Shown here one piece after another: positions 107-3,100 of a stretch of 64,000 nucleotides of DNA (within the stretch, counting starts at the first letter, position 1; each line of letters opens with the position of its first letter). The DNA lies in the NCBI RefSeq assembly GCF_003018255.1, contig NZ_CP027441.1; one strand, given 5' to 3'. A program made the position numbers. The stretch is from Escherichia coli. Its GTDB lineage: Bacteria; Pseudomonadota; Gammaproteobacteria; Enterobacterales; Enterobacteriaceae.

Positions 107-3100
107 TCATTTCAATAAACCTGGCGACCTCTGCCATCCCTTCCTGATTTTCAGCCTGCCAGCGTTCAGCACGCAGGCGCCGGGCTTCGTTCTGCATGGT
201 CGTACTGACCAGACCGGAGATATTCACGTCATACGCCTTGAGCAGCTGATAGCTGTCGCTGTCAACTGTCACTGTAATACGCTGCTTCATAGCACACCTC
301 TTTTTGACATACTTCTGGTATGCATATCAGTATATATTATTATGATGCAAAAATCAGCGCGTTAATACACATACTGTTATCTGGCTTTTAGTAAGCCTTA
401 TTTATTTTACCTTACATTATGTTAACCAATAAAAATTAAAATCAGACTTATAAAAACAAAGCGTAATTATCGAATGACCATTTCCGGCAGATCCGATTTT
501 TCTGTTATTTACTGGTTTCCGGAAGTGTACCACGCTGAGGAAATCATCATATCGCTGTTTTCCGCCCCTGCGTGGCGCATCACAGGTCAGGGAAATAACA
601 CAACATATAGTGTCATAATCAGCCAAATGAAGCACTACATGTTGTACTTACAGGAGGCGGCGTTGTGTGGGGGAGAGGAAGATCCGTGACAGCCGGAAAC
701 CGGATCTGTGCGGCAGAGAACGGGCAGGAGATATGATAATTAAGCGGCGTACATAAAATCATATCAGATATGATTTTCACCATTAGATATAAAACCATAC
801 CTGATATTATCAGAAATCAATAATACACAAATCATGCAGGATATGATTTTTACCTTTAATAACATTATCAGATGGAGCGTGCAGGATGGATGAAGAAAGG
901 GTGTTTTCACTCAGCTATGAACAACTGACCCGGTTTGCGGAACGACGCATCCGGGAATGCAATCTGGACAGCCAGGGCGCGATTTATCTCTGCGAGTCAG
1001 CCAAAGCCGGAGCCGTGCTGATCTTCTGGCATGAACTGGCCATAAATGGCTATGCCTCAATGAATGCCATAAAGAGACAGGAGCTCATTGACGCCGACTT
1101 TCAGCGCCTCAGAAAGCTCATCTGGCCGGAGGATGACTGGAAATGACTCAGAGCCGCCGACCGTCGCCACTGCAGCGGAGAGTGCTGATTGTGCTGGCTA
1201 CCCTTGATGAAAAACGGCCAGGCCCCGTGCTGACGCGGGACCTGGAACGGGTGCTGGAGCGAAGCGGGGAAACCCCGGTCTACGGGCCAAACCTGCGCGC
1301 CTCCTGCCGTCGTCTGGAGGATGCTGGCTGGCTGCGTACCCTGCGCGCTCCGAACCTGCAGCTGGCAGTGGAGCTGACGGACGCCGGCCGGGCCGTGGCA
1401 CAGCCTCTGCTGCTGGCAGAACAGGACCGCTTCCGGGCAGAACAGCGTGCGGCAGAAGTCGTCGTACTGCCGCTGGTCCCGGCAGCAGGTCTGCCCGCAG
1501 ACGGCACTTCTGCCACTGATCTGGCGGTGCAACTGAACGGCATAACGTATCTGGCCTGCCGTGGGGATTTTGTGGTGCGTCTCGACGGCAGCACCTGTCT
1601 GCAGTTATGGAATAAAGAAGGCAGGGTGGTACGCCGGGAGGGCGATCCGCTGGAAGTGGCGCAGTGGCTGCAGGCCTGTCACGATGCAGGAATGGAGGTT
1701 CGTGTGCAGGTTAATGAAAGCATCACCCCGTAAAAACATGCCAGCACGATTTACACATCATCCCATGGTGGCAGCCGGTTAACTTTCCTGCGCCACCAGT
1801 GGAAAGAGGCCGTGAGCAGTCCGAACAAAAAACCATCTGTGATACTTATAATAATGGCCTCACCTGCCACCATTCCTGACGGCCCCCAGTAGATAAACCA
1901 CATTGCACATCCCCAGGAAATGCCCCATAAGCTCCCCATCAACAGCGTGACCTGCCAGAACGGCATAAAGGGTAATGGCGGAAGCCGGATACCCAGCCGC
2001 CAGAGAATACACAGAAGAGGAGGGGCATAATTGCTCCGCCACATCTTTTTGCTGTCCATCAGGGCAATGGCTCGGGCTTTTTTCTGCTCAAAGGTCACAG
2101 GAGCACCTCCGTTCCATGATGTAAACGTGACACAGCTTATTGTTATTGATTATTATTATCATGCTGTGGTTATGTTGTCATGCATCAGTACACTGACAAA
2201 AGTGCAAAAGAAAGGAAAACAGGCAGATGAACAGAAAATATTATTTTAATAATATGTGGTGGGGATGGGTGACGGGGGGATATATGCTGTATATGTCATG
2301 GGATTATGATTTTAAATACAGATTACTGTTCTGGTGTATTTCTCTCTGCGGAATGGTTTTGTATCCGGTTGCCAGATGGTGTATTGAAAATACAGCCCTG
2401 TAATTTACCCGGCTTCATTGCTGGAACAGCGTTTTTTTACTGATACTCTCGGAAAAATGGGATTACTTGCGGTTTATACGGGTACTGTTTTCATATTATC
2501 TCTTCCGTTAACTCTGATATATATTCTTTCTGTTATCATAAAGGCTGTCTGTAAGATAGACAGCCTGTCTTATATATTATTTAAATGCCCCAGAACTTAT
2601 TCGCTTTTTCCACAAGCGTTTCATCAATCAGTGCACCGGTGACAGCCATCAGTAAACCATACTCGATAATGCCTAAAGCGCTTCCGGTAAGAATACTGAA
2701 GACCAGAGCAACAAGAGCCGTTGCGGCATTACCTGCTATGATGGTTTCTGTTTTAACAAAAAAAGGACGCCAGTTACCTGTCCGGGCAGCCTTACCAAAC
2801 TCAGTGATCCAGTCGGCAAAATTTGTAATTTTTCCTGCATATCCTAGTCCCCGACTGAATCTGTTCAGATTAAACGATATATCAGACAGTTTCACAGCCA
2901 TAGCTCCCGCAGGAAAGAGTACCTGCGAGAGACGATATTCTGCACGGTTCATATATTCATCCGGGGCAGGAATATCGGCCCGGTACAATCTGTCCGGGCC
3001 GGATGGGTAATTTACAGGATGTTCGCGATGGATTTAGCCAGCTGGTCTTCCAGTACAGGCTTCGCTTCTTCAAATTTCAGGTTAACCTTGTTGGCATTAG

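Follow-up and report, generated by a model that had tools for sequence, protein, structure and literature searches.

What do two small, overlapping genes that stand behind an array of AT-rich repeats do for the plasmids that carry them, and is the array their operator? The question is raised by a 64,000-nucleotide stretch of Escherichia coli DNA (contig NZ_CP027441.1 of assembly GCF_003018255.1; hereafter the window), whose relevant region is 99.7–99.9% identical to pO113-type plasmids of Shiga-toxigenic E. coli. Near its left end lie ydfA (886–1146, plus strand) and ydeA (1143–1733, plus strand). These names are placeholders that appear in some sources and match the annotation of plasmid R64; in all other records the products are called "hypothetical protein". 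The copy in the window is complete. We are moderately confident that ydfA–ydeA is a negatively autoregulated operon in which YdeA, a protein modeled as a winged helix, would repress transcription through the repeats; the binding, the repression and the start of transcription are predicted from sequence and structure models.

A first-pass annotation of the window had reported repeated motifs directly upstream of the two open reading frames (ORFs), and we recovered all of them at coordinates that were exact or at most one base off. They amount to three copies of a 17-bp palindrome, ATCATAT-N3-ATATGAT. The first, O1, is part of a perfect 11+1+11 palindrome at 755–777, with the core ATCATAT-CAG-ATATGAT at 758–774 and its center 120 bp before the ydfA ATG. 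Two degenerate copies follow: O2 (ACCATAC-CTG-ATATTAT, 794–810, centered at −84), which reads ATCATATCTGATATGAT in most other loci, and O3 (ATCATGC-AGG-ATATGAT, 831–847, centered at −47). An isolated plus-strand half-site, box 0 (GATATGATAAT, 730–740), lies 37 bp upstream of the O1 center. In the whole 64 kb the 11-mer GATATGATTTT is found just three times, always inside 755–850, and the observed number of near matches to it was reached by no shuffle. No clustered or better-than-chance operator sites of good quality turned up elsewhere, whether in the rest of the window, in the flanks of other loci or in ~158 kb of pO113.

To this we added an alignment of the 240 bp before ydfA from 24 distinct loci, with conservation scored over 23. 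For comparison we used loci on annotated plasmids together with loci in 26 species-representative genomes, among them Buttiauxella, Citrobacter, Hafnia, Edwardsiella, Pluralibacter, Raoultella, Brenneria and Yersinia. The aligned regions consist of conserved blocks alternating with variable DNA: the half-sites ATCATAT and ATATGAT score 1.5–1.85 bits/position, the spacers 0.55–1.06, and the centers of the first and third palindromes 0.6–0.8. The best-conserved block of all is the ATATGAT of box 0 (1.85 bits/position). Within O1 the half-sites reach 1.6–1.8 bits as against 0.8 bits in the center, and O3 likewise has conserved half-sites and a variable center. Strong half-sites around a variable center are the pattern expected of a dimer contacting two half-sites, and the 10 bp that separate them, center to center, fit a dimer in two successive major grooves. 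Across Enterobacterales plasmids the half-sites and a 36/37-bp spacing are kept and the sequence of the spacers is not; 41 of the 59 adjacent spacings are 36 or 37 bp, the site centers are fixed at −120, −84 and −47 from the ATG, and the array as a whole comprises four to five sites over ~150 bp. Two other elements are conserved as well. One is a GC-rich segment at 708–727 (1.34 bits/position over 23 loci), between a recombination site described below and the first box, and the other, at 861–885 on the plus strand, combines the box ACATTATCAGAYGG with the ribosome-binding region GGAGCGTGCAGG (1.35–1.68 bits/position) and is near-invariant in 24 loci.

The boxes appear to belong with ydeA and not with ydfA. 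In two related Yersinia loci that lack ydfA, ATCATA/TATGAT boxes still stand directly before ydeA, and YdeA relatives of ~30% identity without ydfA have a different putative recognition helix together with different upstream palindromes. Both observations suggest that the boxes travel with YdeA.

The helix-turn-helix-like N-terminus that had been noticed in the second ORF was borne out by modeling. The 196-residue YdeA is predicted with confidence to contain a MarR/PadR-like winged helix (residues 9–78) and then a long helix (80–104), after which come a linker that varies and a C-terminal domain rich in beta structure (127–190); a winged-helix fold with a dimerization helix is what MarR/PadR-like regulators have. 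A strongly basic N-terminal part (pI 10.9) is joined to an acidic C-terminal part. Alleles differ in the linker by duplications of an AEQDRLR heptad or by deletion, and this variation in length confirms the two-domain design. For the C-terminal domain there was no structural or sequence match. Profile searches of both proteins, which the first-pass annotation had called for, gave no Pfam or NCBIfam model above its cut-off and no significant PADLOC match for either. Against MarR/PadR profiles YdeA did not reach a curated cut-off; its best scores were 13.9 bits to AbiEi_4 (cut-off 25), a sub-threshold match on the winged helix with an E value of 0.06, and 13.2–16.9 bits to PaaX (cut-off 24.8). 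MarR_2 was matched (15.8 bits) in one distant YdeA homolog only, and the sole noteworthy PHROG match, over residues 23–90, was to an unannotated family.

The best structural matches to YdeA are the MarR/PadR autorepressors (MarR on marO, MepR, LmrR, MftR), which share the winged helix and long helix and act as dimers on palindromes overlapping their own promoters, an arrangement whose counterpart is predicted here. YdeA differs from them in having no profile-level membership and an extra beta-rich C-terminal domain of ~70 residues, and its gene differs in being preceded by a small partner gene that is translated first and by three phased operators versus one or two.

We noted several other features of the YdeA family. 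The linker (1420–1510, about residues 93–126) is a hotspot of length variation, with alleles of 169–214 amino acids. One common allele, P0084 (91 contigs), has a frameshifted C-terminus, and some relatives carry 100–230 additional C-terminal residues that contain no known domain. Searched exhaustively, 1.84 billion representative proteins yielded only 216 YdeA-related clusters, many of them fragments, while YdeA homologs are present in at least 5,000 of 72,556 PLSDB plasmids; the family is narrow in sequence space and very abundant in nature. On metagenome contig L012 (4001–8570) a ~30%-identity relative without ydfA is followed by genes for a UvrD-like helicase, a TraI_2 relaxase and an integrase, a neighborhood which indicates that distant family members sit in integrative conjugative elements. 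Finally, an association study of IncK2 plasmids (PMC12987596, 2026) took a plasmid gene named ydeA for the chromosomal L-arabinose exporter of the major facilitator superfamily; this is probably a collision of gene names with the unrelated 196-residue winged-helix YdeA of I-complex plasmids.

YdfA is an acidic protein of 86 residues that belongs to no known family and is modeled as a three-helix bundle (pLDDT 84) resembling generic or designed bundles only. As had been claimed, the two ORFs are translationally coupled: they share an ATGA, and GGAGG precedes the second start. In nearly all loci a YdfA-like ORF lies directly before ydeA, usually overlapping it by 1–13 nucleotides. The further claim that both ORFs are much richer in GC than their surroundings held for ydeA, whose 64.1% is the maximum over all 591-bp windows of the 64 kb (mean 45.7%, standard deviation 6.7%), but not for ydfA, at only 52.1%; the operator DNA has 27.4%. 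No paralog of either gene was found within the window.

How is the pair transcribed? The central site is TCTGATATGAT in most loci and TGATATTAT in the window (802–810), where, judging from sequence, it is likely to be an extended −10 element accompanied by a weak −35; O2 overlaps this predicted element. The most likely transcription start is then predicted near 817, the same position as the start, 69 nucleotides before the start codon, that BProm predicts in the IncI1 plasmid pUA1135 (PMC12111858). In that plasmid, reverse transcription PCR placed ydfA, ydeA, ibfA and a gene for a ProQ/FinO-like protein on one transcript (PMC12111858), and in pS88 transcripts of both ydfA and ydeA have been detected (PMC3438092). 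We are therefore dealing with two small, adjacent, co-transcribed genes with an ATGA overlap and operator-like palindromes in front of them, for which autoregulation is the predicted part. The possibility of an autoregulated module with its operator had been raised from the first-pass annotation, and it is supported by comparison and structure modeling: the protein is modeled as a winged helix, the three palindromes are conserved and keep their positions, the middle one lies over the likely extended −10, and the boxes are confined to the promoter.

Under the autoregulation we favor, events at the locus would run as follows. Transcription would start near 817 from the extended −10 promoter TGaTATTAT (802–810), and a dimeric, MarR/PadR-like YdeA would bind the three palindromes centered at −120, −84 and −47. 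With the middle site over the −10 and the third downstream of the predicted start, in the transcribed leader, occupancy should block RNA polymerase. YdfA, small, acidic and helical, would be translated first from the same message and would probably act with YdeA, possibly through the C-terminal domain of the latter, or else be an effector that the operon delivers. Downstream genes in the same direction, such as ibfA in IncI plasmids, would be transcribed from the ydfA promoter too.

Five observations weigh against this account. First, a simple sigma-70 scan of 700–885 called no promoter, which we attribute to the weak −35. Second, the half-site TATGAT resembles a −10 hexamer and may thus be conserved in part as a promoter element and not as a protein-binding site. 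Third, the Yersinia evidence consists of two related loci and of short motifs only. Fourth, in a second copy of the module on pO113, outside the window, the promoter and the first ten ydfA codons are gone. Fifth, in a large E. coli IncF lineage an IS3-family insertion has removed everything upstream of ~837, with both genes kept. The last two cases argue that tight autoregulation is not indispensable, and the losses they document, of promoter and codons in the one and of operators in the other, further suggest that the module is dispensable in some settings.

The pair is widespread. Among the complete genomes of E. coli, 2,104 of 5,426 (39%) contain the module in whole or in part, almost always on plasmids, and in 1,245 of them no less than 80% of it is there; plasmids with YdeA homologs include IncF, IncI and Klebsiella IncFII(K)/FIB plasmids bearing virulence and resistance genes. 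The genes downstream of ydeA vary by plasmid; considered as a lead to what the module does, they were set aside, being mostly unrelated and uncharacterized. In IncI plasmids the pair heads an operon that continues with ibfA (phage defense by abortive infection) and a ProQ/FinO gene; in ColIa/Ib-type regions a DUF6404 gene converges on the pair and is accompanied by colicin Ia/Ib immunity and colicin genes; Citrobacter has DUF6884 and thermonuclease genes; and Klebsiella and relatives have a recurrent 164-residue protein and then an Hha-domain gene. In seven loci, spread over five genera, the gene immediately 3′ of ydeA encodes a protein of 158–164 residues without family match (L006, 5429–5923, with equivalents in L005, L007, L020, L025, L028 and L029), and an Hha-domain gene comes after it in the two annotated Klebsiella-type examples. 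In Edwardsiella hoshinae TTGTTATC is repeated in tandem about eight times (L022, 3645–3715), after an ORF that is ribbon-helix-helix-like by eye and before an unrelated 85-residue ORF which stands in for ydfA before ydeA; this array looks like a partition centromere. A transposon-sequencing paper on I-complex plasmids yielded no information on ydfA or ydeA.

Could YdfA be an effector (it might, for instance, inhibit a host or defense factor), with YdeA doing no more than limit its expression? In anti-CRISPR (Acr)–Aca operons a small variable gene is followed by a conserved helix-turn-helix gene, behind palindromes. The ydfA–ydeA pair has the same layout of a small, fast-diverging first gene, a conserved helix-turn-helix second gene and inverted repeats in the promoter. 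At the same loci YdfA is 35–65% identical and YdeA 60–70%, and on some plasmids near-identical YdeA proteins are paired with YdfA variants only 62% identical; the motifs FSLSYEQL, FWY.LA and DAD.QRL are retained in YdfA throughout. The neighborhoods abound in defense genes, ibfA and a Gabija-like pair among them. We nevertheless regard this reading as unlikely. YdeA differs from Aca proteins in being a two-domain winged-helix protein, and the pair lies beside a plasmid recombination site and not in a phage or in a leading-region anti-defense island; the leading region is the usual place of plasmid anti-defense genes, and ardA, psiB and ssb are elsewhere on pO113. YdfA has no similarity to known anti-defense proteins, and most of the phage-interference phenotype was restored by ibfA alone (PMC12111858).

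We consider it quite unlikely that the pair is a toxin–antitoxin-like addiction module, in which YdfA or the C-terminal domain of YdeA would inhibit growth, the other would neutralize it and the complex would repress through the winged helix, as in the reverse-order systems HigBA and MqsRA. Two small overlapping genes with palindromic operators would suit such a module, as would the surrounding plasmid maintenance genes (ccdAB, a resolvase-type integrase, parA and parM) and the places where ydeA occurs alone or with a truncated ydfA, as an orphan antitoxin would. AbiEi-type antitoxins and repressors have an N-terminal winged helix and a C-terminal domain, and their negative autoregulation works through long inverted repeats that occur as a pair in the promoter. 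YdeA is like them in its two parts and in the sub-threshold AbiEi_4 match given above, but an AbiEii nucleotidyltransferase partner is missing and the partner that is present is an 86-residue helical protein encoded upstream. Moreover, no recognizable toxin or antitoxin family or fold was found for YdfA or YdeA in Pfam, NCBIfam, PADLOC or structure comparison; YdfA in particular is a plain acidic helical bundle that matches no nuclease-like or enzyme-like fold, and promoterless copies exist on many plasmids. Both this and the effector reading are compatible with autoregulation by YdeA.

The recombination site on which the module abuts was missed in the first-pass annotation. Adjoining the motifs, at 680–707, is a 28-bp inverted repeat, AGATCCG-N14-CGGATCT (AGATCCGTGACAGCCGGAAACCGGATCT), which is unique in the window, has GATC (Dam) sites in both arms and forms the left boundary of the ydfA module, outside the operator. 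Similarity between plasmids breaks exactly at this element in both directions. In F-like and pSLT-like plasmids that lack ydfA the complete element lies upstream of ccdA and similarity to the window stops right after CGGATCT, and where the left flank of a ydfA locus is unrelated, the element is still there and only its right side is shared. To the left of it, in pO113 and F-like plasmids, follow ccdA, ccdB and a site-specific integrase gene, in that order. In R64 the element is found at 43,620–43,646 of the record, directly before the integrase operon. The R64-specific genes end at 43,619 and an "rfsF to yfcA" segment starts at 43,620 (PMC8004404), so that the element corresponds to the site called rfsF, where plasmid homology has been described as ending (PMC9412624). 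On these grounds we predict that 680–707 is an rfsF-type site for a ResD-type recombinase encoded beyond ccdB, its crossover activity being read from the breaks in homology. It resembles the rfsF/ResD multimer-resolution systems of F, R64 and IncR plasmids in its 28-bp inverted-repeat core next to ccdAB and a tyrosine-recombinase operon and in the break of homology (PMC8004404, PMC9412624). The difference is that in ydfA plasmids the operators always start 23 bp to the right of the site, an association not discussed in those two papers.

A second copy of the element abuts the ydfA operators in R64 (slightly degenerate) and in ColIb-P9 (more degenerate). Two or three rfsF-like elements also occur within a few kb of each other in L017 (319 and 2016), L045 (7499, 8050 and 15621) and L002 (3991 and 4539), consistent with DNA segments inserted by site-specific recombination at rfsF. 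The inverted repeat at 680–707 was also considered as an RNA hairpin and rejected: over 20 diverse copies of 676–740 the RNAalifold covariation term was −0.14 kcal/mol, without base-pair covariation, which marks it as a DNA sequence element. The same comparison gave the GC-rich segment at 708–727 no supported RNA structure. A search of 250–2300 against Rfam gave no credible family.

The constant position of the array next to this site admits a further reading, to which we give only a slender chance, namely that the boxes are accessory architecture of the rfsF site. YdeA bound at intervals of ~3.5 turns might then shape the DNA and influence ResD-mediated resolution or exchange, or couple the promoter to synapsis; the accessory sequences of cer and Pcer/Rcd provide the analogy. 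Four to five sites over ~150 bp would be in keeping with this, and in all aligned loci the first box lies 23 bp from the core, with a right arm, YCGGATCTGC, that does not vary even at loci whose left arm has decayed. However, F-like and pSLT-like plasmids have the core without ydfA–ydeA and with wholly different DNA on that side, which shows that the site can do without the boxes, and adjacency is to be expected in any case since recombination breaks homology exactly at the core; crossovers at the core are the simplest explanation of the constant distance. Just as improbable, in our view, is a combined arrangement in which the pair would be both a self-regulating operon and a functional partner of the rfsF/ResD hotspot, YdeA on the phased boxes either shaping the recombination site or making the ydfA promoter a reporter of whether the plasmid is recombining or multimeric, in the manner of Pcer/Rcd at the cer site of ColE1, and YdfA being the fast-evolving effector released then.

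There is very little to recommend the idea that the boxes bind another factor, such as host Fur or another plasmid regulator, with YdeA acting elsewhere, or that they are the iterons of the replication origin suggested in the first-pass annotation: AT-rich DNA with GATAAT/ATTATC-like hexamers and a 0.17-fold fall of the pS88 ydfA transcript under iron chelator (p = 0.12; PMC3438092) are set against boxes that travel with ydeA and against the direction of that change, which for a Fur-repressed promoter should have been induction, and the origin fails because the palindromes are inverted repeats 36–37 bp apart and not tandem iterons, because no rep gene adjoins them (the nearest, for the RepFIB initiator at 4909–5886, is ~4 kb off) and because the same module with its upstream DNA occurs in plasmids of four replicon types (IncF, IncI, IncFII(K) and IncU). 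A Fur box in the operator was tried and rejected, the best consensus match in 700–885 having 7 mismatches in 19 positions and better ones lying elsewhere in the window.

On either side of the module and its rfsF-type site the window holds other features. Its left edge carries minus-strand ccdB and ccdA (the latter at 72–290). The non-coding DNA between ccdA and the rfsF-type site (465–680) is 84–88% conserved in F-like plasmids and recognizable in pSLT and in a Brenneria contig; it may hold recombinase accessory sequences or oriV1-related sequences. A 71-residue ORF annotated there in pO113 (474–689) is probably non-coding, since plasmid L043 has a 1-nucleotide deletion inside it. To the right of ydfA–ydeA a DUF6404 gene (1751–2098, minus strand) is followed by a frameshifted colicin Ia-type immunity gene, a C-terminal remnant of a colicin gene, traT and the RepFIB initiator gene. 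The colicin Ia-type locus (2227–2988) has decayed, its immunity gene being broken into ORFs of 58 and 74 codons and its colicin reduced to the C-terminal pore-domain part; the second pO113 unit, ydfA–ydeA–DUF6404–immunity with an intact colicin gene beside it, lies ~16 kb away (L041, 36874–39585). In the divergent promoter region between the DUF6404 and colicin immunity genes there is a Fur-box-like sequence, GTTATTGATTATTATTATC (2142–2160, 3 mismatches in 19), which fits the reported induction of ybaA and cia by iron chelator in pS88. Farther off, ATCACATTCGATATAAT at 40905–40921 has its exact reverse complement 4.2 kb away at 45089–45105; the two surfaced only as weak matches in the operator scan and are possibly the ends of a mobile element.

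Taken together, the kind of system proposed here, a self-repressing winged-helix regulator, is an ordinary one, and its family is uncharacterized and extremely common on plasmids. What is unusual is a second domain without a match, an obligate small partner and a fixed position by a recombination hotspot. Outside a few named records every copy of these genes is entered as "hypothetical protein" and no curated family covers YdfA or YdeA. The analysis supplies for them a testable model, in which the operator is defined, the promoter predicted and YdeA the candidate repressor, and it flags a collision of gene names that has probably misled a published association study already. It also fixes the sequence and position of the rfsF-type crossover site at which these plasmids exchange sets of genes. 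In IncI plasmids the same predicted promoter would drive ibfA, and the pair may therefore control a defense phenotype that changes the phage types of Salmonella.

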